Assembly: GCA_964487045.1 (NCBI GenBank)
Contig: CAZAOT010000001.1
Location: 215,863-279,862, forward strand
Direction: 5' to 3'
Source of the DNA: an uncultured Candidatus Saccharibacteria bacterium
Lineage (GTDB): Bacteria > Patescibacteriota > UBA1384 > DTJR01
Length of the DNA stretch: 64,000 nucleotides
Positions within the stretch are counted from its first letter, which is position 1, and each line of letters begins with the position of its first letter. Made by a program: the position numbers and the translations under genes. Shown here piece after piece: positions 20,220 to 36,508 of the stretch. The notes below the pieces were generated by a model. The model saw only the letters and a list, made by a program, of their open reading frames with translations, had not been told where the DNA came from and ran no database searches.

Positions 20220-20319
20220 TTATATCAAAAATAAATACTACTCAATTTTATTAAACCTGTAAAGAAAAGGGGCCGCGGTCGATGAAAATCGCGGCCCCTA
20301 GGCACAGGCTGGACTGAGA

Positions 20320-20610
20320 TCATCCGCCTTGCATCTTTGCGAATGCCCCGCGGATAAGTGTTTCCAGATGAGTGTAGTAACCGTAGCCTCTCGTGTCGAG
20401 TGGCTGGCCGTCCAGGTACTGTGCACGCGAGGGCGAACCCTCGCATACTGTCTTGCCATCAATGACAACTGGCAGCAGATGTCGGTGGTCGTCGTCATGA
20501 CCACCCCAGTTCAGGATGCCTTCGCTCAATGACCCGGTGATCTTTTCGAGCTTGGCGACGTCGTTGTCGGGAGGTACGTCTAGTCCACACTTATCGCATT
20601 TTGCAGACAT
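20320..20610 (-). CDS. GC-rich cassette C: 96-aa hypothetical protein with an N-terminal CxxC
   Basis: TTGACT-17-TATAAA promoter and AAGGAG SD upstream. A strong terminator lies downstream (ggggccgcg...cgcggcccc + T-run, 20255-20298). Confidence 0.5.
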   Translation of the reverse strand: MSAKCDKCGLDVPPDNDVAKLEKITGSLSEGILNWGGHDDDHRHLLPVVIDGKTVCEGSPSRAQYLDGQPLDTRGYGYYTHLETLIRGAFAKMQGG

Positions 20611-22780: not shown

Positions 22781-22858
22781 ATGCAAGAAGGGTTCAACCC
22801 TTTCAACCTAGACGGCTCGATCAACTACGATCACCCGCATTTTCCATCACACTGGTAA
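22781..22858 (+). CDS. GC-rich cassette D, small ORF 1 (25 aa, MQEGFNPFNLDGSINYDHPHFPSHW)
   Basis: AGGAGG lies 7 nt upstream. It is immediately followed by small ORF 2. Both are short, so coding status is uncertain. Confidence 0.3.
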   Translation: MQEGFNPFNLDGSINYDHPHFPSHW

Positions 22859-22872
22859 GGAGAGCTACTGAC

Positions 22873-22986
22873 ATGAGCAAGCCGATCAACCACTGCACTG
22901 GTCATATCGTCCGTCCGAACGGCACTGTCACTCGTCCCACCCCACCTCCGCCCGCTTCCGCCAAGAAGCACATCGCTGTCATCTAG
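22873..22986 (+). CDS. GC-rich cassette D, small ORF 2 (37 aa, Pro-rich, MSKPINHCTGHIVRPNGTVTRPTPPPPASAKKHIAVI)
   Basis: AAGGAGAG SD. A strong terminator follows (ggcgaccgc...gcggtcgcc + TTTTT, 23015-23048). Confidence 0.35.
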   Translation: MSKPINHCTGHIVRPNGTVTRPTPPPPASAKKHIAVI

Positions 22987-23205
22987 GCAGCCACGCCCTA
23001 ACCGGGTTCTCAGGCGACCGCGCTACGCGCTGCGGTCGCCTTTTTCTATATGTAATATAAATGACCCACTCACCGAAATCTTACTGCAAAACAGACTACG
23101 TCCTGTTATTGCAGTGCGGTTGGTGAGGGGTCTGCGGCTAGAGTACTAGCCTTGACTTTTATGATGATGTATGATAACATCATAGATCGTAAATTAAGAA
23201 AGCTT

Positions 23206-24192
23206 ATGACAAATTTTGAACAGGAAGTAAAAACAGGAATCGAATTTTTCAAACTTTTTGACGCAGAGAAAATTCATGAATTTGTGACGCAAATTAAGCC
23301 GCCGGTCTTAGTTGCGGCTATGGGTTCTAGCTATTATTTGCCAAGCGGACGAGCTCAGTCGATTGCTGACCAACTTAGCGTGATGCAGCATATCAGGTTT
23401 ATTTTTGCCTCAGAAGGTTACAATATCAATCCTAAACACTGGAATTCATTAATCCTAATTTCAAATTCTGGAAAAACCAGAGAGATTATTTCGCTAGCTA
23501 AGAAATTTAAAAAAGAGAATATTTACGCTATCACCTCAAGTGGTTCTTCAGAACTCGCTTCACTTGCTCGAAAGACTTATGTTCTTCAGTCAGGAAAAGA
23601 AAAGGCTGTCGCTGCCACTAAGTCAATTGTGGAGCAATCCTTAGTGCTTGAAGATTTAGTCAAATACCTTTCCCAAAAAGGAGAGATTTCTAAAGTTGAG
23701 ATGAAGCAGGTTGACCAAGCGATGAAGAAAAATTTAAATTTATCGATCGACTCAAGATTGGTTTTAGCAATCGCTGGAGCTCAAACCGTTTATTTTGTAG
23801 GTGGATCAACTGGTATCGGCGAAGAGGTTGCCCTTAAATTTAATGAACTTGCTAAGAAAAAGTCTAAATTTATTCCTGGTACTCAAATACTACACGGCTC
23901 AGAAGAAGTTATTGAAAAGGGTGATGTCGTATTCTTGCTTTTTGCGGAAAAATATCGAGATTACGCTGACAGGTTTAAGCAAATGAAAGAAAAAACTGGT
24001 TGCTTCTTCGTAACCGTTGGTCAAAATTGGCCAATTTCCGATGTGGATGCCAGGCTTGAATTAGTTAGCGGTTACAAACCATATTGCTACTTAGCATACT
24101 TCTGGAATATTCTTACCAAATACGCTTTGCTTCGAGGATATTCGCTTGACAAAGCCGATAAAATTGCCAAAGTAGGCGTAGGAGCTAAATAA
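23206..24192 (+). CDS. SIS-domain sugar phosphate isomerase/aminotransferase-like protein
   Basis: SIS-like motifs (AAMGSSYY...ISNSGKT). The start was chosen at MTNFEQ, because the longer frame's TTG coincides with the -35 box. Confidence 0.55.
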   Translation: MTNFEQEVKTGIEFFKLFDAEKIHEFVTQIKPPVLVAAMGSSYYLPSGRAQSIADQLSVMQHIRFIFASEGYNINPKHWNSLILISNSGKTREIISLAKKFKKENIYAITSSGSSELASLARKTYVLQSGKEKAVAATKSIVEQSLVLEDLVKYLSQKGEISKVEMKQVDQAMKKNLNLSIDSRLVLAIAGAQTVYFVGGSTGIGEEVALKFNELAKKKSKFIPGTQILHGSEEVIEKGDVVFLLFAEKYRDYADRFKQMKEKTGCFFVTVGQNWPISDVDARLELVSGYKPYCYLAYFWNILTKYALLRGYSLDKADKIAKVGVGAK

Positions 24193-25031
24193 TGGAAAGA
24201 CTTCCTTTTACAATTACAATGCGCAAAGACCTTGTTAAGAAGGTCGATTCTTTGGTTGATGGTACAAAAATTAGAAATCGATCGCATGCTTTAGAGTTTG
24301 TGGTCAATACATATTTCTCCCCAAAGATTTCAAAAGCACTTATCTTGGCTGGCGGAAAGGGTATAAAAATGCGCCCGCTAACTTACGAAATGCCCAAGGC
24401 AATGCTTCCAGTTAAGGGCAAGCCAATTTTAGAATATACAATCGAGCAACTTAAGAAGAACGAAATCCGCGAAATTATAATTGCTTGTGGGCCTCTTAGC
24501 GAAAAAATAAAAGACTATTTTGGCGACGGCTCAAGATTCTCAGTCAAAATTAGCTATATTGATGAGAAGGCAGACCTTGGAACTGGTGGCGCGCTTAAAA
24601 AGGCCCTACCAATCATGGGAAGCGAGCCTTTTGTGATGGTTTGGGGAGATGTTTTGGCTGAGCTTGATCTTGCTGACATGGTTGATTTTCATATGGACGA
24701 AAATCCAGTTATGACAGTCGCCCTGACCTCTGTTTCTGACCCTAGAGAATATGGTTCGGTTAGAATGCATCGCAATATTATGGTTGATTTCCATGAGAAG
24801 CCAAAGAAAGGTGCTGATGTATCTCACTTGGTCACAGCGGGAATTCATATCGTTGATCCAAAAATTTCTAAATATTTATCAAAAAAATCTTCTTTTATGC
24901 TTGAAGAAGAAGTTCTACCAATGCTGACTAAAGATAGGGAAGTAAGAGGTTATATTTTCGATGGTCAGTGGTTTGATGTAGGGTCTCTTGAGATCTATCA
25001 GCGCGCTATCAGATCTTGGGGCAAGAACTAA
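24192..25031 (+). CDS. sugar-phosphate nucleotidyltransferase with an N-terminal ribbon-helix-helix extension
   Basis: Canonical NTP-transferase N-terminus ALILAGGKGIKMRPLTYEMPKAMLPV is preceded by 46 aa with an RHH-like pattern (ITMRKDLVKKVDSL...RSHALEFVV). It couples to the upstream gene by a TAATG overlap. Confidence 0.7.
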   Translation: MERLPFTITMRKDLVKKVDSLVDGTKIRNRSHALEFVVNTYFSPKISKALILAGGKGIKMRPLTYEMPKAMLPVKGKPILEYTIEQLKKNEIREIIIACGPLSEKIKDYFGDGSRFSVKISYIDEKADLGTGGALKKALPIMGSEPFVMVWGDVLAELDLADMVDFHMDENPVMTVALTSVSDPREYGSVRMHRNIMVDFHEKPKKGADVSHLVTAGIHIVDPKISKYLSKKSSFMLEEEVLPMLTKDREVRGYIFDGQWFDVGSLEIYQRAIRSWGKN

Positions 25032-25100
25032 ATTTAAATTCTCTTGTTTGGTTTGCAATTTTTTCATGTATAATTATGGTAGACGCTAATCATGTGATAT

Positions 25101-25730
25101 ATGAAAAAAATTGGTTGGTCTAATAAAATGGCATATGCGGTCGGTCTTTTAGCTACCGACGGTCATCTTTCAATTGATAAACGACATATAGATCTAACTT
25201 CAAAGGATGTCGAACAGCTGAAAAATTTTATGCAGGCGATTGGGAGACAATATATCATAGCTAAAAAATCTTCTGGTTATACGGGTGAGCTTTGTAGCCG
25301 AATTCAATTTAGTGACGTATCGCTGTATCGGTGGTTGCTGAGTATCGGCTTCAAGCAGAAAAAGACTGATGAGATGAGCGATTTAAAGATCCCTCAAAAG
25401 TATTTCTTTGATTTTCTTAGAGGACATTTCGATGGTGACGGGTCTATATACTCATACTTTGATCCTCGCTGGAAAAGTAGTTTTATGTATTACATAACAT
25501 TTATAGCTAAGAACAGAGATCATATTGTTTGGTTACAAAAAATGATTGAAAAATTAAGTGGCGTAAAAGGAAGGATTGGATTGGGAAAGCGTGTATATCA
25601 AGTAAGATTCGCCAAGAAAGAGAGCAAGGTTCTTATCAATAAGATGTACAAAAGAACTGACGCCCTTTATTTAACTAGAAAATATGATAAAATCTTAAAG
25701 ATCCTTGAAATTGATGCGGATGTGCTGTAA
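25101..25730 (+). CDS. LAGLIDADG homing endonuclease (two-motif)
   Basis: Motifs LLATDGHL and FDGDGSIY. The last 15 nt and stop codon overlap the 5' end of tRNA-Leu(GAG). Confidence 0.8.
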   Translation: MKKIGWSNKMAYAVGLLATDGHLSIDKRHIDLTSKDVEQLKNFMQAIGRQYIIAKKSSGYTGELCSRIQFSDVSLYRWLLSIGFKQKKTDEMSDLKIPQKYFFDFLRGHFDGDGSIYSYFDPRWKSSFMYYITFIAKNRDHIVWLQKMIEKLSGVKGRIGLGKRVYQVRFAKKESKVLINKMYKRTDALYLTRKYDKILKILEIDADVL

Positions 25731-25802
25731 TTGGTAGCCAGGCGGCCTTGAGGAGGCCGTGTCCGTAAGGGCGTGGAGGTTCGAGTCCTCTCATCCGCAC
25801 CA
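25716..25802 (+). tRNA. tRNA-Leu (GAG), type II
   Basis: Acceptor GCGGATG/CATCCGC, anticodon loop TTGAGGA, long variable arm, T-loop TTCGAGT, CCA. Confidence 0.8.
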
Positions 25803-26070
25803 AAAATTAAATATCCCGAAAGGGTTATTTTTTTTAACCCACTTGACCCCATACCAGATAATATTATTGTTAAGGATTATTTGGCGGTTCCGCCCCGCCA
25901 AAGCCTTTCTGCAAAACGAAATTCTTTCGGTTACCTGCCTGCCGGCAGGCAGGTTGCAGAAGCGTCGGCTACGGGGTCTGCGAGCTGATTACAGCTCTTG
26001 ACAACAATATGATGATGTATGATAACATCATATTACATCACGAGCATTTCTTGACAGGAGGGTCGCAATC

Positions 26071-26286
26071 ATGACTGGTGGTACCGTTTCTCTCGATCTG
26101 GAAAATGTTCACGAAGGTGTCCGTCTCTGCAAGAGCGGATGCAACGTGAATGTCTTCGGGGCTAACGGAGTCTTACTCCAAATCCTCGAAGGCACCGACA
26201 TCGCTGAATGTGTGGAGCGCCTTCAGAAAGAGGGTGTTCCGCACACCATCTGCACCCCTGACCTGGTCATTCAAATCACCCGCTAG
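26071..26286 (+). CDS. GC-rich cassette E: 71-aa hypothetical protein
   Basis: A TTGACA promoter overlaps the 24-bp motif atgatgatgtatgataacatcata, which also occurs at the native SIS gene promoter. A terminator hairpin agggcccc...ggggccct follows. Confidence 0.45.
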   Translation: MTGGTVSLDLENVHEGVRLCKSGCNVNVFGANGVLLQILEGTDIAECVERLQKEGVPHTICTPDLVIQITR

Positions 26287-26450
26287 TGTCGTCTGCTAGC
26301 CAGCTATCTCGTGACATCAGGGCCCCCGTCAATCGACAGGGGCCCTACGACTAATTTGACAACTTGGTTTAATATGGTGTTATTATGGCAATATGTATTG
26401 AAAATTAATTCGTTTAAAATTTAATTTTTAAAATAAGAATTGAGGTAGAT

Positions 26451-28289
26451 ATGTGCGGAATTGTTGGTTATATTGGCACGAATAATGGTGTCGAAGCGAT
26501 TGTTGATGGACTCAAGAGGCTCGAGTATCGCGGCTATGACTCGTGGGGAATTGCGGCCAAAAAAGATGGAAAGATTTTAATACACAAACAAGTTGGCAAA
26601 ATTGGAGGATTTGATTTAAAAAAAGATTTACCTAAATTCGATGGACAGCTCTGTATTGGTCACACCCGCTGGGCGACTCATGGCGGCGTAACTCGTGAGA
26701 ACTCTCACCCTCATGTATCTTGCGACGGTAGGATTGTTGTAGTTCACAATGGCATTGTCGAAAACTATCAGGAGCTCAAGGCTGAGCTTACGAAAAAGGG
26801 TCATGTTTTCAAATCCCAGACTGACACTGAAGTCATTGCTCACTTAATTGAGCAAGAGCTATCCGCCTTCGCCAAGGCTTCGGCAGGATCGTCCGGGTCG
26901 TCTAAAGCCGACTCGGCGAAAAGATTAGTCGATGCTGTCAGAAGAGCTTTAAAAAAGATCGAAGGAAGTTATGCTCTTGGCGTTTTAGATCGTGAAACAG
27001 ATACTTTAATCGGAACTCGTCTGGCTAGTCCGCTTATTTTAGGAATCGGAAAAAATGAATTTTTTCTTGGCTCCGATGTACCAGCGTTTCTCAAATATAC
27101 TAATCAAGTGGTATTTCTTGACGAAGGCGAGATGGCTGTAATGAAGAAAGATGCTCTTGGCGCATCGACCTATGAGCTTCTAGAAGTTGCCTCTGGCAAA
27201 AAACTTAAGCCAAAAGTGGTCAAAATTGCCTGGTCTAGTGAAGAAGCAGAAAAGGGCGGGCACCCTCATTTTATGATCAAAGAAATGCTTGAGCAGCCAC
27301 AAGTTATCAGAAAAACTGCCGGCACCGAAAAAGAAGAACTCGAAAAAGCAGCAGCGCTAATTAACAAAGCAAAAAGGGTTTTTGTCGTTGCTTGTGGAAC
27401 GGCCCTACATGCTGGTCTATACGGATCGTATTTGCTCGCTAAGAGAAATAATATTATGGTTGAGCCAATCTCAGCAGGAGAGCTTTCATATTTTTCTCAT
27501 TTATTCAAAAAAGGCGATTTGGTCATAACCGTATCGCAGTCCGGAGAAACAGCCGATGTTTTGGAAGCGGTTCGCTCTGCTCACAAAGCTGGTGCAAAAG
27601 TTTTGGCTTTGGTAAATGTACTTGGCTCCTCGCTCATGCGCTTAGCCAATCGCTCCATTCTTACTAAAGCTGGCTCTGAAATTTGCGTGCTTTCAACCAA
27701 AGCTTATATCTCGCAACAAGCGATGTTTGCGATGCTATCAGGAACGCTTTCGGGCAAAACTGCTTCAGCAAAAAAAGAACTTGAACTAGTCGCTAAAGAC
27801 ATGGAGAAGATTCTTAGCAAAAAAAGCTTAGAAAAAATCAAACTTTCCAGCAAGAAACTTGCTAAAGTCCCTAATCTCTATGCTCTTGGCCGCTCGATCA
27901 ACTATGCAAACTCTCTTGAGAGCTGTCTAAAAATCAAAGAAGTTTCATATATCCATGCCGAGGGTTTTGCCGGCGGTGACCTCAAGCATGGACCAATTTC
28001 ACTTATCGAAAAAGGAGTGCCAGTTTTGATCTTTGTCTCTCCGGACTCGACCGAGAAAGAAATTATTTCAAACGCGATGGAGGTAAAGGCCAGAGGCGCT
28101 CACGTAATCGGCATCTCGCCAACAAATAACTCTGTGTTTGATGAGTATTTTCCAGTCGCAGATCTTGGTGATCTGACTCCAATTTCAGCAATCGTTTACG
28201 CTCAGCTCATGGCTTATTATATTGCCTTAGAGAAGAAACTCGATCCTGACAAGCCAAGAAATTTGGCTAAGTCGGTTACGGTCAAATAA
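26451..28289 (+). CDS. glmS: glutamine--fructose-6-phosphate aminotransferase
   Basis: MCGIVGYIG N-terminal Cys and two SIS domains. Ends with ...VTVK. Confidence 0.9.
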   Translation: MCGIVGYIGTNNGVEAIVDGLKRLEYRGYDSWGIAAKKDGKILIHKQVGKIGGFDLKKDLPKFDGQLCIGHTRWATHGGVTRENSHPHVSCDGRIVVVHNGIVENYQELKAELTKKGHVFKSQTDTEVIAHLIEQELSAFAKASAGSSGSSKADSAKRLVDAVRRALKKIEGSYALGVLDRETDTLIGTRLASPLILGIGKNEFFLGSDVPAFLKYTNQVVFLDEGEMAVMKKDALGASTYELLEVASGKKLKPKVVKIAWSSEEAEKGGHPHFMIKEMLEQPQVIRKTAGTEKEELEKAAALINKAKRVFVVACGTALHAGLYGSYLLAKRNNIMVEPISAGELSYFSHLFKKGDLVITVSQSGETADVLEAVRSAHKAGAKVLALVNVLGSSLMRLANRSILTKAGSEICVLSTKAYISQQAMFAMLSGTLSGKTASAKKELELVAKDMEKILSKKSLEKIKLSSKKLAKVPNLYALGRSINYANSLESCLKIKEVSYIHAEGFAGGDLKHGPISLIEKGVPVLIFVSPDSTEKEIISNAMEVKARGAHVIGISPTNNSVFDEYFPVADLGDLTPISAIVYAQLMAYYIALEKKLDPDKPRNLAKSVTVK

Positions 28290-28632: not shown

Positions 28633-28736
28633 GTCAGGTTCGTAAATTGAAATTTACTTAGAGGTAGGTTCCTGGAGCTTTATCCAGAAATCCTGCTTCT
28701 AAGCAGGTATTCTCCAGCCGCTTAGTCGGCTGGGAG

Positions 28737-29261
28737 GTGATTGATTTGTCGAAGCAAGAACGGACAACCGGACTCGTTGTTGTAGCAGCGGTCGTAGGGA
28801 TCTGGATCCTTAGCCGCATCGTCGGCGATGGCTTCGGCGAGACGTTCTGCGAGATCTTGGCCGTGAGCGCCGGCGCCCTGGTCTGTACCATACTGGCATC
28901 TGCGCTGCTGACGAAGCCGGATGGGAAGATGCCGGAGGAGAGTGCTATCATCGGGCTCTTCATGATCTTCTTTGTCCTGCTGGCTATCCCGCACTTCAGT
29001 GTCTCGGCCAAGCTTGCGTCGAGCAAGTGGCAGATGAAGATCGCGGTGGCCCACGACTATGACAAAGCAGGGATCAAAGAGGCGCTCACCCAGCGTGACG
29101 AGACGCTCCGGCGCTCGAGTGCTTACATGATCGGTGACGGCTGGAAGTATGACCGTCACACCCACTACTTCAACCGGGGCTGGAACCTGTATCTCTGGGT
29201 TCCGTTCTCCGGATACCGGCGCAAGCCGGTCACGACCAACGGCCTGGGGACTAGTCCCTAG
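28737..29261 (+). CDS. GC-rich cassette F: hypothetical integral membrane protein (3-4 TM)
   Basis: GC-rich ORF with a structured ~100-nt leader and a GGGAGG SD. The start could be the GTG at 28737 or the TTG at 28746. Confidence 0.5.
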   Translation: MIDLSKQERTTGLVVVAAVVGIWILSRIVGDGFGETFCEILAVSAGALVCTILASALLTKPDGKMPEESAIIGLFMIFFVLLAIPHFSVSAKLASSKWQMKIAVAHDYDKAGIKEALTQRDETLRRSSAYMIGDGWKYDRHTHYFNRGWNLYLWVPFSGYRRKPVTTNGLGTSP

Positions 29262-29317
29262 GCCGTTTTTGATTGAAAAAAATCAAATTATAAGGTATAA
29301 TTTCGATGTTTGATGAT

Positions 29318-35382: not shown

Positions 35383-35470
35383 GGCGCGGTGTCGTAATCG
35401 GTAGCCGAGGCAGACTTAAAATCTGTTGGTCCTAAAGACCGTGTGGGTTCGAGTCCCACCCGCGCCACCA
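35383..35470 (+). tRNA. tRNA-Leu (TAA), type II
   Basis: Acceptor GGCGCGG/CCGCGCC, anticodon loop CTTAAAA, long variable arm, T-loop TTCGAGT, CCA. Confidence 0.8.
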
Positions 35471-35482
35471 TAGGGAGGATTT

Positions 35483-36175
35483 TTGCAAAAGTTGATCGAT
35501 ACAGAATTCTTCAAGAAATGGACGCATGATAGTGCTTATCTAATCGGCTATATATGTGCTGATGGTTGTGTACATAAGCGATCCAACAGGAATAATAGCT
35601 ATATTCTAACGATCACATCAAAAGATAAAGATCATTTGCACAAAATCAACACCATATTGTCATCTAATTATGCTATTTCAAAAAAAATCGGCGGTAGTGG
35701 ATCGATTTCCTACAATCTAAGTATTTCAAACACTGAGCTTTGCCTTGATCTAATAAATCTAGGGATAACTCCTCGTAAGACTTTCACCATAAGTAAAGTA
35801 GACGTTCCGGACTCTTTATTCTGCGATTTTTTGCGAGGTTATTTTGACGCAGATGGATCGATCTACATCTATAAGGTTAATAATACTTGGCAACTCAAGC
35901 TAGCTTTGGTTTCAGCTAGCAAGAACTTTTTGGAATTATTAGAGAGGGAAATATCTTTCAGACTTCAACTAGAGAGAAAAAATATTTATACGTTTCAGGG
36001 CAAGGGCAAGAACAATCCATTGCACTCGCTAGTTTTTTATATAAATGATGGGCAAAAATTCTTAAAATTTATTTACAAAAATAGTCCCCATATTTTTTTA
36101 GAAAGAAAGTACGAAGTCTTTAATAAATGGAAGACCATCAAAAGACGTAGCTATATATTAACAACTCAAAGTTGA
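35483..36175 (+). CDS. LAGLIDADG homing endonuclease (two-motif)
   Basis: Motifs YICADGCV and FDADGSIY. TTG start with AGGGAGG 7 nt upstream. It lies 12 bp downstream of tRNA-Leu(TAA). Confidence 0.75.
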   Translation: MQKLIDTEFFKKWTHDSAYLIGYICADGCVHKRSNRNNSYILTITSKDKDHLHKINTILSSNYAISKKIGGSGSISYNLSISNTELCLDLINLGITPRKTFTISKVDVPDSLFCDFLRGYFDADGSIYIYKVNNTWQLKLALVSASKNFLELLEREISFRLQLERKNIYTFQGKGKNNPLHSLVFYINDGQKFLKFIYKNSPHIFLERKYEVFNKWKTIKRRSYILTTQS

Positions 36176-36277
36176 TACTTTTCTTACTCCCTTGATCAAT
36201 TTTTATAAAAATGTTATAATTTCTCTCTGTTGGCGCAAATGAAATTGGCCATTTTGTGGTCAGCTAAATCTGCGACA

Positions 36278-36508
36278 ATGGAGGGTGTTTCTGTGGAACA
36301 GGACATCGTATTCGTGTTCGAGGATAAGAAGTACAAGGTCAGCCATGATGCTTACATCCTGGGTCTGGCCATCAGGCTTCCGGATGGTCGCATGATCCGC
36401 CCGAACTACTGGGAAACAGGTGATCCCCCTGTTCCCAAAGGACTGGCGGTTTGTGGGATAGACGAGCATGTTCTTGCTGAGCTCGTCGAAGACGGGAGCC
36501 AGTCATAG
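36278..36508 (+). CDS. GC-rich cassette H: ~76-aa hypothetical protein
   Basis: TTGATC-17-TATAAT promoter at 36191-36219. The start is ambiguous (ATG at 36278 or the GTG 15 nt later after GGAGGG). A terminator follows (ggccgga...tccggcc + T-run). Confidence 0.45.
   Translation: MEGVSVEQDIVFVFEDKKYKVSHDAYILGLAIRLPDGRMIRPNYWETGDPPVPKGLAVCGIDEHVLAELVEDGSQS

Follow-up and report, generated by a model that had tools for sequence, protein, structure and literature searches.

Within a 64,000-nucleotide (nt) stretch of the genome of an uncultured Candidatus Saccharibacteria bacterium (contig CAZAOT010000001.1, positions 215,863 to 279,862; hereafter the window), the open reading frame (ORF) of a LAGLIDADG homing endonuclease runs into the 5' end of an intact transfer RNA (tRNA) gene, tRNA-Leu(GAG), and a relic of the 5' half of such a tRNA lies directly upstream of the ORF. 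This three-part architecture (half-tRNA element, ORF, intact tRNA) recurs in several hundred Patescibacteria genomes and appears to be undescribed. Element and ORF together are probably a free-standing, intron-less cassette, dedicated to the tRNA-Leu(GAG) gene of Patescibacteria, which is mobile or was so recently. The evidence lies in the anatomy of the locus and its strict linkage to one tRNA gene, in a LAGLIDADG fold with intact catalytic residues, and in patchy occupancy with matched empty sites and decay products. To this can be added sequence co-variation, which ties the ORF to the element rather than to the tRNA.

In the window, ORF and tRNA share 15 nt (25716-25730). The last four codons of the ORF and its stop, GCG GAT GTG CTG TAA, are at the same time positions 1-15 of the tRNA, and the stop codon is the TAA of the tRNA D loop (Table 1). 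A first-pass annotation, made from the letters of the window, had placed the end of the ORF (...DADVL) inside the 5' end of an uninterrupted tRNA; both statements were borne out, as ARAGORN calls an intact tRNA-Leu(GAG) and a local Rfam scan scores it (25716-25799) at 47.9 bits against a gathering score of 29. The same annotation had allowed for two ways of being mistaken, a failing tRNA prediction and a frameshift artefact, and neither applies: the junction is identical in three independent short-read assemblies (L001-L003), and the overlap is therefore not a frameshift artefact of one assembly. The relatives P0004 and P0005 (66% identity) likewise have ORFs that read into their own tRNA in the frame seen in the window. 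An Rfam run over the whole window (gathering threshold, default filters) reported six tRNAs and missed this one, an omission that looks like an effect of the speed filter. That omission and the mechanical nature of ORF lists might suggest a chance juxtaposition or an artefact of annotation or assembly, but this explanation is effectively refuted by the three concordant assemblies, by the tRNA calls of ARAGORN and the local Rfam scan, and by the recurrence of the junction across the family.

Table 1. Positions of the features discussed, numbered from the first letter of the window
Feature	Position	Strand	Basis or remark
TATAAT, a -10-like hexamer just 5' of the tRNA-like element; candidate endonuclease promoter in this clade	25069-25074	+	Sequence reading
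Shortened upstream element TATGGTAGACGCTAATCATGTGATAT, relic of the tRNA-Leu(GAG) 5' half (D loop to anticodon arm); abuts the ATG	25075-25100	+	
LAGLIDADG homing-endonuclease gene, 209 amino acids (aa), single chain, two motifs, ATG start, ends ...EIDADVL (stop)	25101-25730	+	ORF list, Pfam
LAGLIDADG motif 1, AYAVGLLATDGH (AVGLLATDG)	25131-25166	+	D20 is the predicted catalytic aspartate (Asp)
LAGLIDADG motif 2, FLRGHFDGDGS	25413-25445	+	D113 is the predicted catalytic Asp
TGaTAAAAT, extended -10-like site in the ORF 3' end, 22 nt before the tRNA; candidate internal tRNA promoter	25685-25693	+	Sequence reading
tRNA-Leu(GAG), intact, encoded CCA	25716-25802	+	ARAGORN; Rfam tRNA
Weak hairpin, then T run; probable intrinsic terminator closing the ORF-tRNA unit	25809-25835	+	RNA fold -8.2 kcal/mol, z -1.8
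tRNA-Leu(TAA)	35383-35470	+	Second LAGLIDADG gene starts 13 nt after
Second LAGLIDADG gene	35483 or ATG 35519 to 36175	+	25% identical to the first; motifs YLIGYICADG and FLRGYFDADG

The recurrence is extensive. A database search returned 2225 homologues of the window protein, the top 120 of them about 50-82% identical and about 210-240 aa long; those of them that are named span many Patescibacteria lineages (Howlett-, Berkel-, Sung-, Pace-, Azam- and Staskawiczbacteria included), and the C-terminal tails of several resemble translated tRNA. Scanning one genome per species gave 505 confirmed matches, of which the best-scoring 80 loci, from Patescibacteria genomes, were examined. Seventy-three were informative; in the other seven the contig ends less than 100 nt from the ORF or the ORF runs off the contig. 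At every one of the 73 the next feature on the same strand after the ORF is a tRNA-Leu (71 GAG, 2 AAG), an arrangement far beyond chance. Measured from the ORF stop to the first nucleotide (+1) of the tRNA, the overlapping loci stand at -36 (10 loci), -35 (1), -21 (2), -16 (1), -15 (10) and -10 (2), and the non-overlapping ones at 0 to +13 (46 loci) and +46 (1). One frame is common to 22 of the 26 overlapping loci, with tRNA base 1 as codon position 1; in this frame the ORF ends either at the TAA of the D loop or at a TGA that U33 makes with the two leading bases of the anticodon. From locus to locus, the bodies of the tRNAs vary a good deal.

By its motifs and its modeled fold, the window protein appears to be a two-motif, single-chain LAGLIDADG enzyme, for which site-specific cleavage is predicted. 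It matches the Pfam family LAGLIDADG_3 (PF14528) in two stretches at 28.1 bits (cut-off 22.5); NCBIfam returned no match for it. Residues D20, G21, D111, G112, D113 and G114 are invariant across a 30-sequence alignment. The AlphaFold2 model, built from an alignment of 30 homologues (predicted local distance difference test [pLDDT] 92.2, predicted template modeling [pTM] score 0.90), folds into two alpha-beta-beta-alpha-beta-beta-alpha halves arranged as a pseudo-dimer. Its best match among solved structures is I-Tsp061I (2DCH; profile expectation value [E] 1e-6; Foldseek E 2.9e-11, template modeling [TM] score 0.74), followed by intein endonuclease domains, WhiA, I-AniI, I-SceI and I-DmoI, and the top 50 Foldseek matches in PDB are all LAGLIDADG proteins. 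The Pfam model of WhiA stays below threshold for this ORF (14.7 versus 23.2), and neither Pfam nor AlphaFold2 gives the protein a helix-turn-helix (HTH) or other added domain.

The ORF is that of a stand-alone protein, outside any intron or intein. A group I or group II intron around it can be rejected: the tRNA is uninterrupted, and Rfam searches of 23000-28000 found no signal of either intron class at E<=10, only the tRNA and chance-level matches. The search for a group I core that the first-pass annotation had proposed therefore came back empty, and its two suggested readings fared differently. A free-standing endonuclease that homed to a site beside the tRNA is supported by the intact catalytic Asp residues, the uninterrupted tRNA, the lack of an intron signal and the patchy occupancy described below. 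An intron residue fused to the 5' flank probably accounts for part of the history, given the half-tRNA found upstream at most loci. Nor does the locus resemble the mobile elements that use a tyrosine or serine integrase to enter tRNA genes and restore them through a duplicated end: it lacks an integrase, the cassette holds a single LAGLIDADG ORF in about 0.7 kb, and the duplicated piece of tRNA is the 5' half, not the 3' end as in those elements.

This 5' half, which the first-pass annotation had passed over along with the family-wide architecture, has a consensus that could be drawn from 75 non-redundant loci. It consists of a T-rich stretch leading into AATTGGTATACGC, a spacer of 5-8 nt (often TATnAC) and CTTGAGG (AATTGGTATACGC..CTTGAGGTATAAT), lies at a median distance of 45 nt upstream of the ORF, and reads as the D loop, the 3' strand of the D stem, and the anticodon stem and loop of tRNA-Leu(GAG), stopping exactly after the loop. 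The full-length form is TTGGTAKACGC-N5-8-CTTGAGG, often with TATAAT directly after it, and elements at L031, L059, L063, L086, L139 and L010 still have the acceptor strand (for example, GCCCAGGTGGCGGAATTGGTATACGCTTTTACCTTGAG). In the clade of the window (window, L209 and L211), a shortened form, ATGGTA(G/T)ACGCT..., abuts the ATG, with its core TGGTAGACGC at 25077-25086 in the window; TATAAT stands just 5' of the shortened element in the window and in L211, which share TATAAT followed by ATGGTAGACGC. By fuzzy search, the element was found in about 90 of 102 occupied loci (about 88%) versus 5 of 72 empty ones, where the matches all are neighboring tRNA-Leu(CAG)-type genes or weak. Its identity to the corresponding stretch of the local tRNA is 68% (shuffled controls, 49%), and to the elements of other loci 76%.

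The element, a descendant of a tRNA-Leu 5' half, is likely to be the promoter region of the endonuclease gene. A -10 hexamer with at least five of six matches begins no more than 20 nt after TTGAG in 52 of 75 loci, compared with 26 of 216 control windows, and its commonest position is directly after CTTGAGG (25 loci). If TTGGTA or TTGGCA is taken for the -35 box, with a spacer of 18 nt, the element has the layout of a sigma-70 promoter. The anticodon loop is the classical position of introns in tRNA genes, and a half-tRNA cut at that loop points to an origin by insertion into the anticodon loop of tRNA-Leu(GAG).

Occupancy was assessed without reference to the ORF. Metagenomes were scanned with a pattern for the tRNA body only, which returned 120 loci, 114 of them with a tRNA-Leu(GAG) called by ARAGORN. 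A LAGLIDADG gene lies directly upstream in 30, 72 are empty (no such gene although 300 nt or more of DNA is available upstream), and the remaining 12 offer too little sequence for a call. Endonuclease-free versions of the locus, which the first-pass annotation had suggested seeking in relatives, exist, and four pairs of occupied and empty alleles have flanks in common (L023/L188, L080/L123, L104/L179 and L086/L115). In these four pairs, the extra DNA of the occupied allele is exactly [element + ORF]. Three of the pairs have the same tRNA sequence in both alleles, and in L080/L123 the two tRNAs agree at about 90%; the upstream gene is about 80% identical within L080/L123, L104/L179 and L086/L115. 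Just ahead of the tRNA, the final few nucleotides in three pairs are similar to the leader of the empty allele, a sign that the tRNA is the resident gene. The upstream gene of L080/L123, L104/L179 and L086/L115 has a KLYYLR-like C-terminal tail that we associate with ribosomal protein L19. A gene with such an L19-like C-terminus, putatively rplS, lies immediately 5' of the tRNA-Leu(GAG) gene at many loci, including L115, L123, L179 and L095; in L115 and L123 no nucleotide separates its stop codon from tRNA +1.

Decaying copies occur as well. In L094 and L117 the ORF is split across two reading frames by frameshift. All that is left in L098 is the last ~49 residues, 12 nt before the tRNA (E 1.3e-9), and in L095 about 17 codons (KIKKALGIIGRRDLISN) containing TTGAAA-17 nt-CATAAT; both remnants retain exactly the 3' end of the ORF. 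The regular expression for tail motifs with which short remnants were sought caught 20 of 104 positive controls, so that the one further remnant it yielded (L095) is a lower bound. In the region 2800-3960 of L098, two unrelated ORFs (one of 136 aa, the other a 166-aa hydrophobic protein) lie between the putative rplS gene and the remnant, so that other sequence seems to have taken the place of the cassette's 5' part.

Co-variation bears on what moves with what. Across 73 non-redundant loci, the pairwise identities of ORF and element correlate with a Spearman coefficient of 0.41, those of tRNA and element with 0.21, and those of ORF and tRNA with 0.12. Individual pairs of loci can be strongly discordant: L043/L187 agree at 74% in the ORF and 96% in the element and at 61% in the tRNA, L041/L054 at 86% in the ORF and 70% in the tRNA, and L013/L026 at 95% or more in the tRNA and 52% in the ORF. 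Together with the differing acceptor strands of L059 and L086 (below), the co-variation and the discordant pairs indicate that element and ORF act as one unit, to which the resident tRNA does not belong.

These observations can be set against a non-mobile history. A tRNA-Leu(GAG) gene might once have been split at about position 37/38 by an endonuclease-bearing insertion or intron, next to a second intact copy, leaving a [5' half-ORF-tRNA] block that was then inherited vertically and repeatedly deleted. Such a relic would explain why the element ends exactly after the anticodon loop (CTTGAGG), at the classical intron position, and why some copies retain the whole 5' half including the acceptor strand; the frame common to 22 of 26 overlaps suggests one ancestral junction, and near-identical cassettes have not been seen in distant hosts. 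We nevertheless consider this history unlikely. No intron RNA core is detectable, and the catalytic residues have been maintained. The element is closer to the family consensus than to the local tRNA (76% versus 68%) and co-varies with the ORF, which implies that it travels with, or is selected with, the ORF. In L059 and L086, moreover, the acceptor strand of the element (GCCCAGG) disagrees with the start of the local tRNA (GCGCGGG).

The differing acceptor strands could also be accommodated by a "cleave and rescue" arrangement, in which the enzyme destroys a sensitive tRNA-Leu(GAG) gene (D-arm to anticodon loop), the cassette brings a resistant tRNA, and the half-tRNA is what remains of the wrecked resident gene. 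The truncation point inside the anticodon loop would suit it, as would L086, where a full 5' half sits 6 nt past the rplS-like stop, the place that the intact tRNA holds in the empty locus L115. This arrangement is very improbable all the same, given that tRNA and ORF show no co-variation (rho 0.12) and that intact tRNAs identical in occupied/empty pairs, together with leaders like those of empty alleles, point to a resident tRNA. On the same correlation and the same identical tRNAs, a tRNA traveling with the cassette can largely be rejected.

For expression of the tRNA, two sources can be envisioned, transcription through the endonuclease gene and an internal promoter. The extended -10-like site in the 3' end of the ORF is invariant in L209 and L211. 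Across the family, 41 of 74 loci have a -10-like hexamer in the stretch 5-35 nt ahead of the tRNA, compared with 6-20 in most control windows, and an equally strong second peak lies 67-97 nt before it; a -10 ending 3-20 nt before the tRNA is found in 28 of 72 empty sites versus 29 of 104, with no clear difference. An internal tRNA promoter in the ORF 3' end may be suggested by these motifs. Beyond the tRNA, L209 and L211 have a hairpin and T run at the position equivalent to that in the window, with stem sequences that differ yet still pair; placed there, they leave the tRNA as the final component of the unit. The window hairpin was not among the calls of the consensus terminator scan, and promoter and terminator matches in 24800-26200 were no more frequent than in shuffles.

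RNase P cleavage at tRNA +1 would strip the stop codon from co-transcribed overlapping variants. A further-reaching proposal, which we regard as doubtful, is that the cassette has taken over expression of an essential tRNA while RNase P throttles the endonuclease and the half-tRNA acts as operator. Insertion moves the native tRNA promoter about 0.7 kb away, so that tRNA-Leu(GAG) would now depend on the cassette for its transcription: it would start at the promoter derived from the half-tRNA, with the tRNA as the 3' end of the endonuclease messenger RNA (mRNA), or at a promoter in the last ORF codons. If so, the selfish gene would be hard to delete cleanly. The RNase P cut would remove the last four codons and the stop, giving a non-stop mRNA and allowing tRNA maturation to limit endonuclease synthesis, and the half-tRNA element would be an operator bound by the endonuclease.

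The life cycle of a mobile cassette can be sketched more simply. The cassette would consist of the tRNA-Leu(GAG) 5'-half element, cut at the anticodon loop, and the endonuclease ORF; the element would now carry the -10 box of the gene and probably its -35 box, and it may serve as a homing-site-like operator to which the enzyme binds, by analogy with I-TevI. The docking site would be the 5' edge of the resident tRNA, where the upstream flank meets it, with the 3' end of the cassette falling 0-13 nt from tRNA +1 or reading into the tRNA up to a stop codon. As the tRNA stays whole, splicing is unnecessary. It would be produced as the 3' end of the endonuclease transcript and freed by RNase P, with the terminator directly after it, or alternatively from a promoter within the final ORF codons. 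The enzyme would cut an unoccupied tRNA-Leu(GAG) locus, and repair would copy the cassette from an occupied allele (intronless homing), the tRNA serving as right-hand homology. After fixation, the gene would decay and be lost, and remnants would stay. Mobility of this kind may be ongoing.

Several points weigh against a mobile cassette. Transfer between clearly different hosts recent enough to leave near-identical cassettes was not demonstrated in any case, the left-hand homology for transfer between distant lineages is unclear, and the identity of the tRNA in occupied and empty alleles leaves escape from self-cleavage unexplained. The weak correlation of ORF with tRNA is indirect evidence, as tRNA identity is a noisy proxy for host relatedness. 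In the window, where the element is shortened, a promoter scan did not call a full -35/-10 pair at it, and the second peak of -10-like hexamers comes from conserved codons, which leaves the enrichment in the ORF 3' end only suggestive. Family members are mostly 50-55% identical to one another and almost all intact, which would also fit long vertical inheritance under selection. As for a vector, phage can be rejected on the viral contigs searched, which hold only relatives of 25-32% identity and two 39-residue partial matches at 51%.

Vertical inheritance is the core of a remaining possibility, a domesticated LAGLIDADG host factor (like WhiA or an intron maturase) that descends with tRNA-Leu(GAG) and aids or regulates its expression, with the element as its binding site. 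The strict linkage to one tRNA species across the whole phylum is what such a factor would show. Nearly all ORFs are intact at a divergence comparable to vertical descent, a conserved tRNA-like element overlaps the promoter, and WhiA is among the structural neighbors. Domestication is nonetheless quite unlikely to be the explanation. Only 30 of 102 same-type tRNA loci carry the gene, close relatives whose flanks agree at ~80-90% are without it, some copies are frameshifted or truncated, and the ORF co-varies poorly with the tRNA. Membership in the class of WhiA-like regulators specifically can be rejected, as both catalytic Asp residues are invariant, unlike those of WhiA, no HTH or other domain has been added, and occupancy is patchy.

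Among known systems, the nearest precedent in function for the proposed mobile cassette is SegB, a free-standing endonuclease in the tRNA gene cluster of phage T4, whose site contains a conserved tRNA motif and which drives inheritance of itself and the adjacent tRNA region (PMC2330249). Like the window cassette, the segB gene lies beside or between intact tRNA genes and outside introns, with intronless homing as the presumed route (PMC3984707). SegB is a GIY-YIG rather than a LAGLIDADG enzyme, resides in a phage rather than a cellular chromosome, and has demonstrated cleavage where that of the cassette is predicted; it is not bound to a particular tRNA species, lacks a half-tRNA relic or a promoter of that kind, and overlaps no tRNA. 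In bacteria of the Candidate Phyla Radiation (CPR), LAGLIDADG genes are found in insertion sequences and group I introns of 16S and 23S ribosomal RNA (rRNA) genes, and their patchiness has been attributed to homing (PMC11270868). Those genes resemble the cassette in phylum, enzyme superfamily, preference for conserved structural-RNA genes and patchy distribution; however, they interrupt the rRNA genes and need removal from the transcript, whereas the cassette interrupts nothing. That study, the one systematic account of CPR LAGLIDADG genes, deals with rRNA insertions only and makes no mention of tRNA (PMC11270868), and no description of a LAGLIDADG gene docked to tRNA-Leu was found in a literature search in which subscription journals were incompletely covered.

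Further parallels concern parts of the cassette. I-Tsp061I (2DCH) and I-DmoI, the closest solved structures, are compact two-motif single chains of ~200 aa like the window protein; sequence identity is 18%, and they reside inside archaeal rRNA introns, whereas the window gene is free-standing in a bacterium. For I-TevI, an operator that resembles the homing site at 15 of 20 positions overlaps the enzyme's own promoter, and both binding and repression have been demonstrated (PMC2988022). The cassette, too, has a sequence like the presumed target over the putative endonuclease promoter, an element 68% identical to the local tRNA, for which an operator role is proposed by analogy only; unlike the I-TevI operator, this element is clearly the relic of a tRNA half. 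Group I introns are known in bacterial tRNA anticodon loops, as in cyanobacterial tRNA-Leu(UAA) (PMC3984707). The host there is again a leucine tRNA, and the upstream half of the cassette ends in the anticodon loop, the site of those introns; in contrast, the cassette has no detectable ribozyme core, its tRNA is uninterrupted, and the anticodon differs.

If the cassette is what it seems, the mobile LAGLIDADG genes of candidate-phyla bacteria would extend beyond rRNA insertions to a second large class tied to one tRNA gene, with more than 2,000 protein clusters and the 505 confirmed genomic matches. It would follow that a homing endonuclease can exploit a structural-RNA gene without an intron, by docking at its 5' edge and using a promoter made from a tRNA half. 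As a large natural library of very compact single-chain LAGLIDADG enzymes (~210 aa), probably directed at a defined and conserved tRNA gene, the family would also be useful for meganuclease engineering. For annotation, an overlapping gene pair is to be expected in the output of gene callers and tRNA finders, half-tRNA relics may be mistaken for pseudogenes, and breaks in short-read contigs are to be expected. Such contigs often end inside or just after tRNA-Leu(GAG), as in L001 (3' end), L009, L024, L056, L057, L067 and L079; that of L001 ends 6 nt past the ORF stop codon. Branching of the assembly graph between occupied and empty alleles in mixed populations could be responsible.

A second LAGLIDADG gene in the window, also absent from the first-pass annotation, belongs to a small, distant family that lies immediately 3' of tRNA-Leu(TAA) in five of five independent loci (the window, L166, L204/L205, L206 and L207/L208). 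Two leucine tRNA genes thus each carry their own LAGLIDADG gene, one on its 5' side and one on its 3' side. Downstream of the second gene, GGCGCAAATGAAATTGGCCATTTTGTGGTCAGCTAAATCTGCGAC at 36233-36300 (+) loosely resembles the 5' part of tRNA-Leu(TAA), by eye only and perhaps by chance; a counterpart was not found in L166.

The window also holds patches rich in guanine and cytosine (G+C; 50-59%), mostly intergenic, at 20300-20600, 22850-23150, 25850-26000 and 28700-29300, in a genome of otherwise ~38-40% G+C. Rfam reported nothing in these patches or in the region of the palindrome that one of them holds, a perfect 20-nt sequence, CCTGCCTGCCGGCAGGCAGG, at 25940-25960. An inverted repeat follows at about 26008-26040; a TTGACA immediately precedes it, and a gene for a 71-aa product lies downstream at 26071.

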